Source of the DNA: a virus
Lineage: Duplodnaviria; Heunggongvirae; Uroviricota; Caudoviricetes
DNA length: 64,000 nucleotides
Strand: one strand, 5' to 3'
Virus record (IMG/VR): IMGVR_UViG_3300012996_000001
Coordinates: 1-64,000 of that record
The notes under the pieces are model-generated. The model made no database searches and was not told the origin of the DNA. It worked only from the letters and a program-made list of their open reading frames with translations. The position numbers and the translations under genes are program-made. Positions 34,320 to 41,879 of this stretch are shown piece after piece; within the stretch, counting starts at the first letter, position 1; each line of letters starts with the position of its first letter.

Positions 34320-34537
34320 GCGGAGGTATAGAAAAAACGTACCTGTTCGAAGGTGGCACAGTACCAGGTAAATTTTTTGATGATGTCTATAAACCGCCTT
34401 GTGGTGAGAAACATCTCCGGGTTTTTGAGTCCGGTGTAACCAACTGGGGTGATGATACCGAGGTGGTTGTGTCGGGAGATTGCGAAGAGACCTTTGACGA
34501 ATATATGTCAAACTGGGCAGGGAATATTAAAAAATGA
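34316..34537 (+). CDS. hypothetical protein (74 aa)
   Basis: AAGGGG RBS. Confidence 0.4.
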   Translation: MSGGIEKTYLFEGGTVPGKFFDDVYKPPCGEKHLRVFESGVTNWGDDTEVVVSGDCEETFDEYMSNWAGNIKK

Positions 34538-35778
34538 AAGTTTACTTAGTCGGTGGTGCAGTACGTGACGAGATCATGGGTGTAAAAAGTAAAGATCGAG
34601 ACTACGTTGTTGTAGGGTCAACCCATGAAGAGATGATTTACTTAGGTTACACCCAAGTTGGTGCAGCGTTTCCTGTTTATCTTCATCCTGAGACCAAAGA
34701 GGAGTATGCCCTCGCCCGAACTGAGAAATCAACCGGACCAGGATACCACGACTTTGAGGTAGTCTTTGGACCTGAGGTGACTATCGAAGAAGACCTTTAT
34801 CGCCGTGATCTCACGATCAATGCCATCGCCAAAGATTTAGATACCGGAGAGTACATCGATCCTTTCTTCGGTGAGGCGGATATCCAAAATCGCAGCCTAC
34901 GCCCTGTGTCGGAAGATTCTTTCAAAGAGGATCCTCTCCGCATTTATCGCTTGGCTCGGTTTGCGGCCCGATATTCGGATTTCTCTATTACAGATGAGGC
35001 TTACCTGTTGTGCCGAAAGGCAAGCGCGGGATTACCCCATCTGCCCAAAGAGCGGAAATTTGCAGAGATCAATAAATGTTTCTCAGACACGAGTGTTGCC
35101 AACAAGCCCTCTAAGATGATCGAGCTTTTGGTAAATCTTGGTGAATTCCCTGAACTCCGGGCTTTGGTGGGTATTCCTCAGCCGGAAAAATATCACGCGG
35201 AAGGCGACCCGTTTACTCATACACTGATGGTATTGGATGCTGCAAACGACAAAGGATGCCACCCTGAAACGCAGTGGGCGTGCCTGTGTCATGATTTAGG
35301 TAAGGTTTGCTACGACACGTTTGGTAATCTGCACGGACATGAGTCCTATGGCGTTCCTATCGCAGAGCAAATGTGTGATCGATACGGAGTACCTAAGTAT
35401 TGGAAACGTCTTGCCTTGGTTGTGACTGAGAACCACGGTCGTATGCACAAAGTCTTGGAGATGACTCCTAAAAAGGTGTACAGTCTGATGCAACGGATCT
35501 CTGCTGAAAAAGATAGTGATTTCGCTCATAAGGTTATGGATGTGTCTGTTGCGGACAGTCAGGGGAGAATCCCAAGTGTGCAAAACTACCCGCAGGCATT
35601 TGTTATGACCCAGTGCATGTCAGAACTGAAAAAGAATATCGATGAGATTTCGGATGAGTGTTCGAAGATTGCTAAAAAATATGCTGGACGACCCGAACTA
35701 ATTCGTGATAATGTTACTGCGTTGAAGGTAAGGTATGTTGCCAAGGCGCTTAAAGAAGCGAAAAACCTAATAAACTAA
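34534..35778 (+). CDS. cca: CCA-adding tRNA nucleotidyltransferase with HD domain
   Basis: Very close to E. coli Cca: MKVYLVGGAVRDEIMGVKSKDRDYVVVGST...FPVYLHPETKEEYALARTE...RRDLTINA...EDPLRIYRLARFAARY, plus HD motif CHDLGK. Confidence 0.85.
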   Translation: MKVYLVGGAVRDEIMGVKSKDRDYVVVGSTHEEMIYLGYTQVGAAFPVYLHPETKEEYALARTEKSTGPGYHDFEVVFGPEVTIEEDLYRRDLTINAIAKDLDTGEYIDPFFGEADIQNRSLRPVSEDSFKEDPLRIYRLARFAARYSDFSITDEAYLLCRKASAGLPHLPKERKFAEINKCFSDTSVANKPSKMIELLVNLGEFPELRALVGIPQPEKYHAEGDPFTHTLMVLDAANDKGCHPETQWACLCHDLGKVCYDTFGNLHGHESYGVPIAEQMCDRYGVPKYWKRLALVVTENHGRMHKVLEMTPKKVYSLMQRISAEKDSDFAHKVMDVSVADSQGRIPSVQNYPQAFVMTQCMSELKKNIDEISDECSKIAKKYAGRPELIRDNVTALKVRYVAKALKEAKNLIN

Positions 35779-35787
35779 GGAGACGAC

Positions 35788-36114
35788 ATGACAATTTATT
35801 TGGTAGGGGCGATTGTAAGCTGCATTGTCTGGTTTTTGCTGACAAAGGCACGTATCCGTGGATTTTATATCCCCGGTCCTAATATCCTTGATTTAGAGGG
35901 GCCGATCCTACCACCCCTCGGAGTAAAAGATCGATTTGAATTACGTGCGGTGATGGTGGTTTGGCTACTTTTTACTTTCGCTTGGCCTTTATGCTGGGCT
36001 TGGCTAATTTTCTTCACAACGGTAGTTTGGTTGGCGTATGCAATTGTGAAACTTTGGTCAGTTACGTTGGGAAATGAAAAGCTTTTGCGTAAAATCTTTG
36101 GGGTGGAAAAATGA
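35788..36114 (+). CDS. membrane protein (108 aa, 3 TM)
   Basis: Hydrophobic ORF. Confidence 0.4.
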   Translation: MTIYLVGAIVSCIVWFLLTKARIRGFYIPGPNILDLEGPILPPLGVKDRFELRAVMVVWLLFTFAWPLCWAWLIFFTTVVWLAYAIVKLWSVTLGNEKLLRKIFGVEK

Positions 36115-36578
36115 AAAGCCGTATGTATTTCTTGGTCAATCAGTATATTCTAGGTATCCAAGCCGGGATTCAGGCAGGTCATGCGGCTGTTGAACTTTTA
36201 AACGACTACCGGGACGCTGATCCGGGCTTGTGCCCAAAGAAGAGGCTGATCGATGACTGGGCAGATAACCACAAGACCTTTATCCTCTTGGAGGGTGGTT
36301 ATCAGCAAAGAATGTACGATTTTGTGGAAGATGTTTTGTTACCTGTTAACGAAATAATTCCCTACGCCACGTTCAAAGAGGAAGTTGATGCTTTGAACGG
36401 TGCATTAACGGCTGTAGCCTTTGTACTACCTGAGTACATCTATAACTGTACGGTGTTTGATGACGGGACGGCACCTTTGCACTACTGGCATCCGGAGACA
36501 GATCATCTTGCTGAGTTCACACAGGAAGAAAGAACGTTAATCAGTGAACTTAAAAAGTTCCGTTTAAAAGGGGGTTGA
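36111..36578 (+). CDS. hypothetical protein, weak PTH2-like (peptidyl-tRNA hydrolase 2) resemblance
   Basis: N-terminus FLVNQYILGIQAGIQAGHAAVELL loosely parallels Pth2 [25 protein letters not shown]. Unverified. Confidence 0.3.
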   Translation: MKSRMYFLVNQYILGIQAGIQAGHAAVELLNDYRDADPGLCPKKRLIDDWADNHKTFILLEGGYQQRMYDFVEDVLLPVNEIIPYATFKEEVDALNGALTAVAFVLPEYIYNCTVFDDGTAPLHYWHPETDHLAEFTQEERTLISELKKFRLKGG

Positions 36579-37657: not shown

Positions 37658-37744
37658 CAAGAGACTGTACTAATTGTGACAACTTCATCCGGGTGAAAAA
37701 GCCCGGGTGGGTTGGTCTCTGCGATTTGCACGACTGGAGGATTG

Positions 37745-38239
37745 ATGGAAAACTTGATGATCCCGGGTGAGTTGGCCCGGGCATTGAGCATAGACTACCA
37801 CAGGACTTTCCTGTGTGTACGTTGGGCAGAATCGCATATCGCGGAAGGGAAGATAGACGACTATGGAGGACAGGCTAAGGAGGTTGTTGAGGGAATTTAT
37901 GTCCGGCTAGAGTCTAATCACTTGGAGTACGATGTCAAAGAAGGTAAAATTATAAATTTAAGCCAAGGGATTTTAAAGAATTATCTTGAGGATATCTCCA
38001 AGCCAAAGGGAGAAGAATTGTCACTCTTCCGATTGTGTGAACCTCAGGAATATGATAGACTTTGTAAAGAAGCATCAAAGTACAGTATGATTTTTAGTAG
38101 GCCCCACAGTTGTATGTTGCATTACATAATTCAAGAGAAGCTTTGTTCGGGTTGTAATTCGATCCGCAGTCGTGTTAACTACGATACGGGAAGTGAGTGG
38201 AAATATTTTTGCGGACGAGGCCCACGCTGCTGTCCGTAA
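37745..38239 (+). CDS. hypothetical Cys-rich protein
   Basis: GGAGG RBS. C-terminal CSGC...CGRGPRCC. Confidence 0.4.
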   Translation: MENLMIPGELARALSIDYHRTFLCVRWAESHIAEGKIDDYGGQAKEVVEGIYVRLESNHLEYDVKEGKIINLSQGILKNYLEDISKPKGEELSLFRLCEPQEYDRLCKEASKYSMIFSRPHSCMLHYIIQEKLCSGCNSIRSRVNYDTGSEWKYFCGRGPRCCP

Positions 38240-38248
38240 GGAGGATTA

Positions 38249-38509
38249 ATGGACAGTAAGAAAGGTTATCATTTAGCAGATATAGAAAAAAGGCGTTACG
38301 GATCTCTTGGCAAAATCCAAGAAGAAGCCGAGGAGCTACTCGATGCTCATCGCCAAGGGTGCCACATCATGGTGCTGATTGAACTGGCGGATCTTTACGG
38401 GGCCATTGAAGGTTTCTTGGCCGAAAATTATCCAGACAGGACTATGGCGGACTTGAAAAAGTTCTCCGACATAACCCGAAGAGCATTTGTCAACGGGCAC
38501 AGGCAGTAA
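38249..38509 (+). CDS. small MazG/HisE-like NTP pyrophosphohydrolase (86 aa)
   Basis: EEAEELLDAH....VLIELADLYGAIEGF matches the all-alpha NTP-PPase EExxE / ELADL pattern. Confidence 0.4.
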   Translation: MDSKKGYHLADIEKRRYGSLGKIQEEAEELLDAHRQGCHIMVLIELADLYGAIEGFLAENYPDRTMADLKKFSDITRRAFVNGHRQ

Positions 38510-38527
38510 TAACCCAACGGAGAAGTT

Positions 38528-39127
38528 ATGAAACACCCGGTAGATTTGAAACTGATAACGGATGCAGCTTTCTGGTGGTCTTCTCGTGGGTTCAGGGAAA
38601 CCGCTGTGCCTGCAATGGTATGCAAAGAGGTGATGGACCATACGGTTCCGCCTGGCGCTGTTGACCTTCGACTAGAAGGTTTTGATCGTGATTGCGTGGT
38701 GGCATCGGCTGAGCAGTCTTTTCTCCAGTTAGAGCTTGACGGGGAGTTGAGCTACGGTGACTGGATGGCACTCACCCCGTGCTACCGCTATGAAACCAAC
38801 CATGACGAGATTCACTTACCCGTTTTCCTCAAGCTGGAGTTATTCTCGCTTCCGGAGGGGCCGGATGAGAAAGAGATGCAGACAGCAGCACTACGTCTTG
38901 CCACCAAATTCCAAGATATGTTTTTTGATATCCGAGGCATCCCGACGGAGATTAAAGAGACAACCGAAGGTTGGGATGCATATTACCGTGGTATTGAACT
39001 CGGATCCTTCGGTGTAAGACGTACCTTACGCAATCAACTCTACCTTTATGGCACAGGGATCGCGGAACCGAGAGCATCTTTTGTGATCCAAAAACACTCG
39101 GAAGGTGAAATAGCTAATTTTGCATAA
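38528..39127 (+). CDS. minimal class II aminoacyl-tRNA synthetase-like catalytic core (EpmA/LysRS/AsnA-like), 199 aa
   Basis: Motif 2-like CYRYETNHDEIHLPVFLKLELF (class II FRNE...H.PEFT.LE). YYRGIELGSFGVRR parallels EpmA/LysRS EVYYKGIELANGF. Motif 3-like YGTGIAEPRASF (GLGIDRL). Confidence 0.45.
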   Translation: MKHPVDLKLITDAAFWWSSRGFRETAVPAMVCKEVMDHTVPPGAVDLRLEGFDRDCVVASAEQSFLQLELDGELSYGDWMALTPCYRYETNHDEIHLPVFLKLELFSLPEGPDEKEMQTAALRLATKFQDMFFDIRGIPTEIKETTEGWDAYYRGIELGSFGVRRTLRNQLYLYGTGIAEPRASFVIQKHSEGEIANFA

Positions 39128-39330
39128 ATTTGCACTGCAAGGCATAACCTATCGTAACGATCTGTGCGATAGGTATTTTCGATGCATTTAAATTGATTTA
39201 AGCGTATTAATTGTGAAAAGGGTATTTTGTTGTGTAAATTGACAACATCTTAACTTTGTCAATAGTCTTCTGTTGTATTTTTGCATAACATGGTAAAATG
39301 GTTGCGCAGAAACTACAACGGGAGAAAGCT

Positions 39331-39822: not shown

Positions 39823-40167
39823 ATGACTCAGGTGGGTATTTTCTTTAAGGGTGCGTTACCGGATGTGACTAAACTACCGCCCAGTGCAGAGAGAGGAGAT
39901 GCCTACTTGGTCGGCGGGGTGACCTACGCCTACATGAACGGAACGTGGTTGCAACTAGGGGCTCAATTGAACAATTTTTTCCAAAACAATTTGTGTTACT
40001 CAGGGGTAGCTGTTACTCTACTTTCAGAAAATGACTTAGAGTCTTTGTTCATCTGCCCAATCGATTTGTCGGAAGAAGATCTGGAGTTTTTCAAGATCAC
40101 CTACCCGGAAGATTACCGTACATTTGAGTATCTCTGGAAAGGGGCGGATAAGGTAAGGGTTGCATAA
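39823..40167 (+). CDS. paralog family member 1 (114 aa)
   Basis: C-terminal module EDLEFFKITYPEDYRTFEYLW. Confidence 0.45.
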   Translation: MTQVGIFFKGALPDVTKLPPSAERGDAYLVGGVTYAYMNGTWLQLGAQLNNFFQNNLCYSGVAVTLLSENDLESLFICPIDLSEEDLEFFKITYPEDYRTFEYLWKGADKVRVA

Positions 40168-40189
40168 AACATAAAGAGGGTAACGGTAA

Positions 40190-40702
40190 GTGAGAAAATC
40201 AACTGAAGAGATATCGAGAGAAGTCTTTGGAAAGGGAGCCAGGATGCTGGGATGGAAAAGTTGGTTCGTATTCCAGCCTTTTTTCAAAGAGATAGAAAAA
40301 CATGTTGCCAAGTCTAAAGAAGTAGGTTCCAGAAAGGACATGCTGATGAAAGGTGGCGTCAGCGCCAGCCACTTCGATGGAAAAGGTATTTATCTCAAAC
40401 TAGATAGCGAAAACGGGGACCTCGTATACTTCTCATTACCGGGGTCGTACAATGCCGAATTGTTAGTATATGCAGAGGATAGTGTTTATTGTCCAAGTAA
40501 AGACATTAAAAAGCCCTTGGGTAATATTTTCGATGACCCTCAGAAACCCAGCTTTGAAGAGTTGGATGCTTTCACCGTAATCTACGGGAATGAAGATGTA
40601 TTGTTGGACATCGCTCATGAATTTTTACCTGCAATAATTGCATTCAATAAATCGGCTGTTAAAAACAGCTTGTCTGTACAGTGGCTGGAGAAATGGTTCT
40701 GA
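40190..40702 (+). CDS. paralog family member 2 (170 aa)
   Basis: GTG start. C-terminal EELDAFTVIYGNEDVLLDIAHEF. Confidence 0.4.
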   Translation: MRKSTEEISREVFGKGARMLGWKSWFVFQPFFKEIEKHVAKSKEVGSRKDMLMKGGVSASHFDGKGIYLKLDSENGDLVYFSLPGSYNAELLVYAEDSVYCPSKDIKKPLGNIFDDPQKPSFEELDAFTVIYGNEDVLLDIAHEFLPAIIAFNKSAVKNSLSVQWLEKWF

Positions 40703-41151
40703 TGACGGATATCAAAGAGACTATCGAGAAGTTAGCTACAGATTGGACTTGGACTGCTGTAAAGGAACATAGAAATCGACATGTGCTGATAAAGGTGCGG
40801 CGTTTCAGAAGCTTGACGGTTAAAGTACCCCATGAGTTTGGGGAGCAGCACTTCGATATTCGGCATGAACCCGAGAAAGGGAAGCATGACCTTAGGATAT
40901 GGACAAAAACTCAAGGTGGCCTTTTGCAGTGGAGGACATGCCCGGTAAAAGGAGATAGATTAGTGTACGTTAAATTTGGGGGACAACCTGAGAAAGAAAA
41001 GGTCGCCTTGGAGGACATCTTCTTGGATCCTCTGCATGTCGACGAAGGTGAGGTGGAGTTTTTCAAGGTCATGTACCCTGACTTGGTAAAACTCCTTCGA
41101 CTTTTTTCTCAGGCTGTTGATTTGGTAGATCAAAAAATAGAGGACGACTAA
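40702..41151 (+). CDS. paralog family member 3
   Basis: N-terminal LATDWTW. C-terminal EGEVEFFKVMYPDLVKLLRLF. Confidence 0.45.
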   Translation: MTDIKETIEKLATDWTWTAVKEHRNRHVLIKVRRFRSLTVKVPHEFGEQHFDIRHEPEKGKHDLRIWTKTQGGLLQWRTCPVKGDRLVYVKFGGQPEKEKVALEDIFLDPLHVDEGEVEFFKVMYPDLVKLLRLFSQAVDLVDQKIEDD

Positions 41152-41179
41152 ATGAACAGTAATATTCTTGTAAAATCTC

Positions 41180-41452
41180 TTGACGGAACGGTGCACAGGG
41201 CCTGTTGGAACACCAGGTCCGCCCGGCAGGGAAACAGTCTACTGTTCTATGGTTTACTGTGGTATAGAATTCGAAGTGAGGATATATCCGGCAAGTAAAC
41301 AATATTTCGAGGACCTTGATAACATAACCGGTGACGAGTTGGACTTCTTAAAGGTCATGTGTCAAGAAGATTTTGACGCCATACGTGAATCGTGGGCGGT
41401 AGCTTGGACAAAGAAGAAAGCCTTTGAGGCTTTTGATAGAGGGGAATTTTAA
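41180..41452 (+). CDS. paralog family member 4, collagen-like GPVGTPGPPGRE
   Basis: TTG start. C-terminal GDELDFLKVMCQEDFDAIRESW. An ATG at 41152 lies in another frame. Confidence 0.4.
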   Translation: MTERCTGPVGTPGPPGRETVYCSMVYCGIEFEVRIYPASKQYFEDLDNITGDELDFLKVMCQEDFDAIRESWAVAWTKKKAFEAFDRGEF

Positions 41453-41453
41453 G

Positions 41454-41879
41454 ATGGGTTGGATTAATAGTCATAATCCCAATCAGATCGTGGTCCCTTA
41501 CTTGCCGACCCCTGCGGATCCGGTGTCACTTTATCAGCAGAGAAAAAAGATTGAGGAAGCTATGTCAGCGACAAGTATAAGCACCGGGCTTGTTAGAAAC
41601 GCACCTGATGTAAGGACTGCGATGGAATCTTGGAATGACATTGTCAAAAAAGTAAATGGTGACAGAAACACACCCAAGAAAAGATCTCTAACTTACAAAG
41701 GTCTGACTTTCTTCCCCCAGTTGAAAGAAGACTCTATGGAGTTCTTCGAAGAAAAGGAAATAAAAACAGAAGAAATTCAACTGCTTGAGATAACATTCCC
41801 GGAAGAGTATACCAAGCTTAAGAAAGCCTGGATGGAGGTTTACCTCCTTAAAATTGCATCGGAAGCTTTCGATAATTGA
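41454..41879 (+). CDS. paralog family member 5
   Basis: C-terminal EEIQLLEITFPEEYTKLKKAW. Confidence 0.4.
   Translation: MGWINSHNPNQIVVPYLPTPADPVSLYQQRKKIEEAMSATSISTGLVRNAPDVRTAMESWNDIVKKVNGDRNTPKKRSLTYKGLTFFPQLKEDSMEFFEEKEIKTEEIQLLEITFPEEYTKLKKAWMEVYLLKIASEAFDN

Follow-up and report, generated by a model that had tools for sequence, protein, structure and literature searches.

Two adjacent genes in a 64,000-nucleotide stretch of tailed-virus DNA (positions 1 to 64,000 of the IMG/VR record IMGVR_UViG_3300012996_000001, Caudoviricetes; hereinafter, the window) encode a minimal catalytic core of a class II aminoacyl-tRNA synthetase (aaRS) and a small MazG/HisE-like protein that adjoins the core gene in nearly all the loci examined. 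The core is an aaRS-like paralogue with an apparently new, obligate MazG-like putative subunit; the sequence family itself is already in the databases (PHROG 4806). The partner gene, located upstream of the core and overlooked in the original prediction that was made from the DNA sequence alone, is the most informative feature with respect to function. We tentatively propose, with slightly less than even confidence, that the two genes, 38249-38509 and 38528-39127, encode a single two-component enzyme in which amino acid activation is coupled to a nucleotide-directed step. The layout of the pair is as follows:

38249..38509, + strand: predicted MazG/HisE-like all-alpha nucleoside triphosphate (NTP) pyrophosphohydrolase partner, 86 aa, phrog_6408, in the same frame as the core and 18 nt upstream of it
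38519..38523, + strand: Shine-Dalgarno sequence GGAGA, read from the sequence, 4 nt 5' of the ATG of the aaRS-like gene
38528..39127, + strand: SerRS-like minimal class II aaRS catalytic core, 199 aa, ATG start; the coordinates include the stop codon

The core protein matches PHROG 4806 with E = 2.8e-49 and has full-length homologues in 275 phage records (tblastn), and a family profile built from 47 sequences retrieves 1,122 clusters (50% identity) at E <= 1e-30 from a search space of 1.84 billion representatives. The AlphaFold2 model is of high quality by its scores (predicted local distance difference test, pLDDT, 93.1; predicted template modeling score, pTM, 0.89), displays the antiparallel beta-sheet catalytic fold and, in a Foldseek search, matches the catalytic domains of PylRS at E ~1e-10. 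Together, these matches indicate that the resemblance to class II aaRS is due neither to chance nor to low complexity, so that the original description of a free-standing minimal class II aaRS-like core holds. The strings on which that description was built are all present in the protein, namely, CYRYETNHDEIHLPVFLKLELF (aa 85-106), DAYYRGIELGSFG (aa 150-162) and the motif 3 string YGTGIAEPR (aa 174-182), and the arginines of motifs 2 and 3 (R87 and R182) are retained in 93 of the 93 unique homologues. Nearly all members of the family consist of 175-200 aa, with a median of 189 aa, and are thus indeed far shorter than any canonical aaRS. An ORF (open reading frame) on the opposite strand, 38336-38641, was considered and discarded as unsupported, in contrast to the + strand ORFs, which have strong homologue support.

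The search of all PDB sequences with the family profile places SerRS at the top (2dq3, E = 5.7e-6, along with ~15 other SerRS), followed by PylRS, with AsnRS reaching only E = 0.19. In a further comparison, the scores were 17.3 and 16.2 for HisRS/HisZ, 16.8 for PylRS and 16.0 for Bll0957, a SerRS-like amino acid:carrier-protein ligase, and clearly lower for AsnA (13.6), LysRS (13.2) and EpmA/GenX (13.1). HisRS/HisZ is not the closest structural or sequence family, and there is no HisRS anticodon-binding domain in the 199 aa. When the core family was aligned with E. coli SerRS (from NC_000913) using hhalign, the probability was 94% across motifs 1-2, and local alignment pairs YGTGIAEPR with NGSGLAVGR and ELGS with EISS. 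The active site elements of the core can be mapped accordingly:

38603..38620, + strand: motif 1 region, AVPAMV (aa 26-31), aligned with YVPYLV of E. coli SerRS; P28 present in 90 of the 93 sequences
38705..38722, + strand: SAEQSF (aa 60-65), the counterpart of the TxE motif of SerRS (T237-A-E239) in the hhalign alignment; S60 and E62 invariant
38774..38845, + strand: motif 2, TPCYRYE…FLKLELF (aa 83-106), from alignments to E. coli SerRS, with a loop ~7 residues shorter
38975..39019, + strand: strand with the metal/ATP-binding Glu and Ser, D150…E157-L-G-S160-x-G-x-R164, corresponding to E355-I-S-S358 of SerRS; all these residues invariant or nearly so
39047..39073, + strand: motif 3, YGTGIAEPR (aa 174-182); T176 corresponds to S391 (seryl contact) and R182 to R397 (the motif 3 Arg)

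In the complex of E. coli SerRS with an analogue of the adenylate, Ser-sulfamoyl-adenosine, the seryl moiety touches T237 and E239 (of TxE), R268, E291 and S391, F287 stacks on the adenine and a Glu binds Mg (10.1101/586255). The residue numbering in that paper was checked against the E. coli sequence. Within motif 2, R87, F100, K102 and E104 of the core correspond to R268, F287, K289 and E291 of SerRS, respectively. Altogether, T237, E239, R268, E291, S391 and F287 map to S60, E62, R87, E104, T176 and F100, all of which are invariant among the 93 unique members of the family, as are the Mg-binding E157 and the motif 3 R182 and, likewise, P84, C85, K102, D150, G159 and S160. Because the contact residues map to invariant residues, the core belongs to the SerRS type (class IIa), with a complete pocket for ATP and serine. 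The segment DAYYRGIELGSFG, which the original prediction likened to EpmA/LysRS, is actually the strand with the metal-binding Glu that is common to all class II enzymes and here takes the SerRS form (E-I-S-S).

No aaRS family is matched by the window protein in Pfam or NCBIfam scans, a fused homologue scores 14.8 bits against NCBIfam TIGR00414 serS, with the cut-off of 301.65, and a profile made of the C-terminal third alone (ELGSxGxR and motif 3) has no match among PDB sequences. The alignment begins at residue ~186 of the 430 residues of SerRS, with no N-terminal extension, so that the N-terminal coiled-coil tRNA arm is lacking; the motif 2 loop consists of 10 residues, compared with 16 in SerRS; and the core also lacks the C-terminal tail and the greater part of the segment that SerRS has between motifs 2 and 3. 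We do not think, judging from the sequence, that the core is a conventional tRNA-Ser charging enzyme, because it has no coiled-coil arm, no full-length motif 2 loop and no anticodon-type domain. The protein, then, should not be filed as a SerRS, although it probably carries out a SerRS-like first step of chemistry.

The partner protein is the second line of evidence. Among 40 diverse members of its family, Y7, H8, K22, E25, E26, E29, E45, D48 and F80 are invariant, and E25-E26-x-x-E29…E45-x-x-D48 is what we take to be the metal-binding signature of all-alpha NTP pyrophosphohydrolases (MazG, HisE and dimeric dUTPase). A profile search of the PDB with the partner family yields HisE 2a7w (E = 0.044) and the MazG-like SSO3215 (E = 0.085), both aligned across the motif, with E25, E26, E29, E45 and D48 falling on the same motif in 2a7w. 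All the matches are below the respective thresholds, that is, 17.0 bits against Pfam PRA-PH (HisE; cut-off 21.3), 15.7 bits against NCBIfam hisE (E = 0.013; threshold 42.7) and, for the homologue from phage Kimel, 16.1 bits against MazG (cut-off 22), and no enzyme family other than HisE and MazG was matched in the Pfam, NCBIfam and PDB profile searches. In Kimel, a T4-like Acinetobacter phage, the gene that overlaps the start of the core homologue is annotated as MazG-like. Thus, the partner resembles MazG and HisE in the EExxE…ExxD motif and the size of ~85-100 aa and possibly in a helical-bundle fold but differs from them in falling below the Pfam/NCBIfam thresholds, in its obligate association with an aaRS-like core, and in the invariant N-terminal G-Y-H and C-terminal T-x-R-A-F-x-x-G-x-R that are not found among the MazG/HisE matches obtained. 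The possibility that the partner is a relic of the SerRS coiled-coil arm was considered and rejected, given that the helices are short, at 16-22 residues each, that the invariant positions form the MazG metal motif and that the enzyme-family matches are limited to MazG and HisE.

The linkage between the two genes recurs in several unrelated lineages. Pairwise BLAST detected homologous partners of ~85 aa, in each case encoded directly ahead of the core gene, in the window and phiTE (Vequintavirinae), VEcB (Stephanstirmvirinae), CcrColossus (Dolichocephalovirinae) and Kimel (Straboviridae); in the protein 149L of the Microcystis phage MaMV-DL01, the partner is fused to the C-terminus of the core (residues 188-266). 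For a broader survey, 80 IMG/VR loci were retrieved with the family alignment, and all their ORFs were scored with hidden Markov models of both proteins; the set comprised 86 viral-type loci in total. In 84 of these, the partner is located beside the core on the same strand, either upstream (64) or downstream (18) or fused (2), and about three quarters of the viral pairs abut or overlap. A genome scan, with one genome per species for 185,579 species, detected just 18 core loci, all in metagenome-assembled genomes (MAGs), and 16 of these contain the partner, including 6 in which the two are fused into a single protein of 267-298 aa with the core at the N-terminus and the MazG-like domain at the C-terminus (Woesebacteria, WWE3, Nanoarchaeota, Woesearchaeota and other DPANN). 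Overall, the partner is adjacent to the core in 100 of the 104 loci (the 86 viral-type and 18 MAG loci), in either gene order, and fusions of the core-N/MazG-C arrangement account for 9 of the 253 family members examined. Adjacency in both orders combined with repeated fusion is a classic hallmark of proteins that act as two subunits of a single enzyme. Unbiased clustering of neighbors revealed no other same-strand gene family in more than ~10 of the 86 loci, and because no third family recurs, the two genes constitute a self-contained cassette that moves among unrelated neighborhoods.

In two saccharibacterial MAG contigs (L089 and L093), the pair lies beside rpsG-rpsL-rpoC and follows an AAA_28 P-loop gene and a divergent gene for a winged helix-turn-helix (wHTH)-Nudix protein; fusA is also nearby in L089, on a contig of 797 kb. 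These neighbors point to a location in the chromosome rather than in a prophage, and the saccharibacterial pair looks like a genuine cellular gene.

The mechanism that we envisage would proceed as follows. The SerRS-derived class IIa core, of which only the central sheet and the three motifs are left, would bind L-serine, or a close isostere of it, along with ATP-Mg to form an aminoacyl-adenylate, most likely seryl-adenylate, with the release of pyrophosphate (PPi). It would do so in a physical complex with the 86-aa partner, a MazG/HisE-type alpha-beta phosphoanhydride hydrolase that would bind an NTP. The activated seryl (or adenylyl) group would then be transferred to an acceptor of the nucleotide type, bound or processed by the partner, which would convert the NTP to the monophosphate before or after ligation or else present the NTP for attack on the adenylate. 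That the substrate is serine, that the two proteins form a complex and that the acceptor is a nucleotide are three points that we infer. The more specific version, in which a near-minimal (‘urzyme-sized’) SerRS core together with a MazG/HisE subunit attaches an aminoacyl or adenylyl group to a nucleotide, either free or within a polymer, and not to a tRNA, is possible but doubtful. Should it be correct, the reaction would yield a new metabolite of the seryl-nucleotide or Np4N (dinucleoside tetraphosphate) type, employed by large phages, bacteria of the candidate phyla radiation (CPR) and DPANN archaea for the manipulation of nucleotides or translation, and the radical SAM (S-adenosylmethionine) enzyme and nucleoside-kinase-like protein of CPR/DPANN would elaborate this product further. 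The suggestion in the original prediction that a core of this kind could act on a non-tRNA target appears reasonable, in that no known tRNA-recognition appendage is present in the core; the specific affinity with EpmA or AsnA that accompanied the suggestion fails.

The neighborhoods of the CPR/DPANN loci bear on the nucleotide-directed step. A radical SAM protein (221-256 aa; PF04055) is encoded next to the fusion gene in 5 of the 6 loci, each with the CxxxCxxC motif at residues ~12-19:

L090, 5234-6004: radical SAM neighbor
L091, 6822-7487: radical SAM neighbor
L092, 6791-7474: radical SAM neighbor
L094, 6798-7484: radical SAM neighbor
L095, 5287-5964: radical SAM neighbor

No NCBIfam model matches this family above the threshold; there is sub-threshold, partial resemblance to MoaA, viperin, NrdG and QueE. 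The AAA_28 P-loop genes (E = 3e-38), which are related through PHROGs to NadR-type and thymidylate-kinase-like kinases, are located directly upstream in three loci, NrdR is a neighbor in three CPR loci, and in one locus, a gene of the uridine kinase family follows. The phage pairs are often found among ribonucleotide reductase (RNR) and nucleotide genes, and the window phage also encodes class I RNR genes and PhoH. In phages, the pair acts alone, without radical SAM or kinase genes.

Several observations weigh against a nucleotide-directed two-component enzyme. The core has no detectable partner within 6 kb in four loci (L029, L075, L102 and L103); the radical SAM and kinase neighbors are confined to CPR/DPANN and absent from the 86 viral loci, and that context may not be transferable to phages; and part of the genomic context points to tRNA instead of the putative nucleotide acceptor. 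Under this alternative, which we rate as unlikely, the core would act in trans as a minimal seryl-tRNA synthetase or as an enzyme of the tRNA 3' end, charging the CCA termini of tRNAs of the phage or host, either tRNA-Ser or tRNAs in general, with recognition provided by the partner or by accessory domains in place of the coiled-coil arm, in order to aid phage translation or to repair damaged tRNA ends. The intact serine pocket and adenylation site are compatible with such activity, and the tRNA context is evident in the window, where the original prediction of the phage's own tRNAs and CCA enzyme proved correct: 10 tRNA genes are located at 48-2693, including tRNA-Ser(GGA) at 2400-2492, and a CCA-adding enzyme is encoded upstream of the module:

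34534-35778, + strand: CCA-adding tRNA nucleotidyltransferase (PolyA_pol head, HD and RNA-binding domains), 2.7 kb upstream of the module

The CCA-adding enzyme is kept at this position in close relatives only. Among 60 loci, 17 contain a tRNA gene within 6 kb of the pair, and in 4-5 (L030, L035, L044, L054 and, arguably, L039), the pair resides inside a tRNA array. In VEcB, a YqeY-domain protein (a GatB-type tRNA-binding helper) is encoded nearby, several members of the core family end with Cys4 ribbon tails, and a PTH2-like (peptidyl-tRNA hydrolase 2-like) hydrolase family is found nearby in six loci. Furthermore, the cores of giant Caulobacter phages carry an N-terminal nucleic-acid-binding helix-hairpin-helix domain similar to the C-terminal domain of the RNA polymerase alpha subunit (alpha-CTD; Pfam, 27.3 bits, above the cut-off), which explains the GenBank name ‘RNA polymerase alpha subunit C-terminal domain protein':

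L003, 3743-4597: fusion of the alpha-CTD-like domain with the core (CcrColossus gp133), with equivalents in L033/L043

However, the coiled-coil arm with which SerRS binds the variable arm of tRNA-Ser is absent and the motif 2 loop is shortened, the invariant catalytic metal-binding motif of the partner is typical of NTP pyrophosphohydrolases and is not an RNA-binding signature, the CPR and DPANN carriers can be expected to possess a normal SerRS, the neighbors in CPR/DPANN are nucleotide enzymes, not tRNA enzymes, and tRNA proximity is observed in a minority of the loci, in large phages that often have big tRNA arrays anyway. As a separate observation on tRNAs, the tRNA identified by ARAGORN at 11010-11084 of L056 has a CTA anticodon (amber suppressor, labeled tRNA-Pyl) and belongs to a phage tRNA cluster ~4.5 kb downstream of the module.

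An improbable alternative is that the pair functions as a dinucleoside-polyphosphate (Ap4N) synthase or an Np4 RNA-capping enzyme, with seryl-adenylate serving merely as the AMP donor, in which case the gamma-phosphate of an NTP or 5'-triphosphate RNA presented by the partner would attack the adenylate, or else the partner would hydrolyze the product. The synthesis of diadenosine tetraphosphate (Ap4A) by T. thermophilus SerRS has reportedly been described structurally. The obligately linked or fused NTP-binding partner would suit a second-nucleotide site, and the nucleotide-metabolism context fits. Interconversion of Ap4A and ATP is a known activity of SerRS, and Ap4A and PPi are used as SerRS assay substrates (10.1101/586255). 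On the other side of the balance, the serine side-chain contacts, E104 and T176, are fully conserved, which is more than an AMP donor seems to require (even though the amino acid would still be a cofactor), and no Ap4A-related neighbors (ApaH or Nudix) recur, there being one Nudix-wHTH gene, in L089 only.

It is very improbable that the core is a HisZ-like regulatory pseudo-synthetase that accompanies a HisE-like enzyme and, with no catalysis of its own, serves only as an amino acid sensor controlling the partner or some other enzyme. This idea is suggested by the best sequence matches of the partner, which are to HisE (phosphoribosyl-ATP pyrophosphatase), a small all-alpha pyrophosphohydrolase that shares one pathway with HisZ, and by the PHROG name of the core family, ‘histidyl tRNA synthetase'. 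HisZ, however, is the non-catalytic regulatory subunit of HisG, whereas here the pocket is SerRS-like, no HisG-like neighbor was detected in the clustering of the 86 loci, the profiles favor SerRS over HisRS, and the complete invariance, in 93 sequences, of the arginines of motifs 2 and 3, of the Glu that binds Mg and of the Phe that stacks on the adenine argues for catalysis. The reading of the original prediction, a class IIb (EpmA/LysRS/AsnA-like) core that aminoacylates a protein such as elongation factor P (EF-P) or amidates aspartate, is scarcely credible, since the weak phmmer match to AsnRS (E = 0.3) and the sub-threshold or borderline PF00152 hits in a few homologues are set against SerRS and PylRS leading far above AsnRS in the profile search, a serine pocket that matches SerRS residue for residue, and the lack of a recurring EF-P or related neighbor in the 86-locus clustering.

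Comparison with characterized systems clarifies in what respects the proposed two-component enzyme would differ from them. Like the catalytic domain of SerRS, the core has a TxE-type motif, the TPC(F/Y)R-E motif 2, F-x-K-x-E, E-(I/L)-x-S and the (S/T)-G-(L/I)-A-x-x-R motif 3, with all the seryl-adenylate contacts retained, but it consists of 199 aa, compared with ~430 in SerRS, and is obligately paired with a MazG-like protein. The amino acid:[carrier protein] ligases, such as Bll0957, are similarly truncated SerRS-type cores that lack the tRNA-binding domain and use a non-tRNA acceptor. These ligases have ~300 aa, originate from SerRS of the methanogen type and use as the acceptor a phosphopantetheinylated carrier protein whose gene is located nearby; here, in contrast, no carrier-protein neighbor recurs in the 86-locus clustering, and the conserved partner is MazG-like. 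GluQ-RS (YadB), EpmA/PoxA and AsnA, likewise, are synthetase cores that have lost the anticodon-binding domain and use aminoacyl-adenylate chemistry, with the queuosine base in tRNA-Asp, Lys34 of EF-P and ammonia as the respective acceptors, but these proteins consist of 300-330 aa, and none has a MazG-like partner. The core would work in the manner of the amino acid:carrier-protein ligases, GluQ-RS, EpmA, AsnA and HisZ, yet is a member of none of these families; it descends from SerRS but, apart from the active site, lacks the features that define SerRS.

In databases, members of the core family are labeled SerRS, HisRS or hypothetical. One genome paper, in which the core is taken to charge tRNA-Ser, mentions ‘MazG' genes nearby but draws no connection between them (PMC8953757). 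In the searchable literature, the coverage of which is incomplete so that an earlier description is possible, we found only such genome annotations taken at face value, with no functional study or description of the pairing. The practical consequence is that hundreds of phage genomes call this protein seryl- or histidyl-tRNA synthetase, when the evidence argues against a canonical synthetase. At 175-200 aa, these proteins are among the smallest natural class II cores that possess all three motifs and a complete amino acid pocket, and a core so small and complete bears on the question of the minimal catalytic unit of class II synthetases. The module is represented by more than 1,000 sequence clusters, occurs in unrelated large phages, resides among core-genome genes of Saccharibacteria and takes the fused form in Woesebacteria, WWE3 and DPANN archaea; this breadth implies a general function, probably one that links amino acid activation to nucleotide chemistry. 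The small size and good predicted folding of both proteins make the question directly testable.

Beyond the pair, ~7 of the 104 loci contain an additional domain of ~185 aa (phrog_4784), with invariant GLGFIQ-K, H-x-H-R-Y-x-F and a later His, which is either fused to the partner, in either order, or encoded between the two genes. In the PDB, this putative cupin domain matches only cysteine dioxygenases (best E = 0.065), with the alignment covering the 3-His iron site. The domain was found in the following contexts:

L047, L063, L067, L041 and L064: phrog_4784 domain fused to the MazG-like protein
L065, 6518-7123: free-standing phrog_4784 domain
L104, 6579-7214: free-standing phrog_4784 domain

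With respect to its affiliation, the window phage is not T5-like; the nearest relatives are Certrevirus (Vequintavirinae) phages, including phiTE, CR3 and PcCB7V, the core homologues of which are 50-56% identical to the window protein. The surroundings of the module in the window include several further elements:

36111-36578, + strand: 155-aa ‘hydrolase', phrog_3668 (E = 6.6e-42), with a faint Pfam match to PTH2 (E = 0.021)
37712..38239, + strand: 175-aa accessory candidate, phrog_12113, with a Cys-rich CSGC…CGxxPRCCP ribbon end, directly upstream of the MazG-like gene
39147..39174, + strand: terminator-like hairpin, 20 nt past the core stop codon (consensus scan only)
39239-39266: promoter-like site TTGACA-16-AATAGT within the 170-nt intergenic region 39128-39297
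39823-41879, + strand: five small ORFs (114, 170, 156, 90 and 151 aa; PHROGs of unknown function) with a weakly similar C-terminal motif

Homologues of the hydrolase are encoded near the module in the unrelated loci L036, L045, L046 and L051. The Cys-rich end of the ORF 37712-38239, CSGCNSIRSRVNYDTGSEWKYFCGRGPRCCP, contains a motif that also ends phiTE_129 and forms the C-terminal tail of a member of the aaRS-like family, P0177; upstream of the pair, the phrog_12113 family is found solely in close relatives of the window, in addition to the single fusion (P0177). This distribution suggests a lineage-specific third component. The hairpin probably marks the end of the transcription unit. The five downstream ORFs share a motif of the type E-x-(D/E)-F-F-K-(V/I)-x-Y-P-E, with mutual BLAST E-values from 1e-5 to 0.05, and look like a diverged paralogous array; the ORF 37712-38239 weakly shares this region. 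Finally, when a 2.1-kb segment was used as the query, the only part with more than 80% nucleotide identity to Certrevirus phages was the DNA that starts at ~39167 and takes in the beginning of the membrane-protein gene located downstream.

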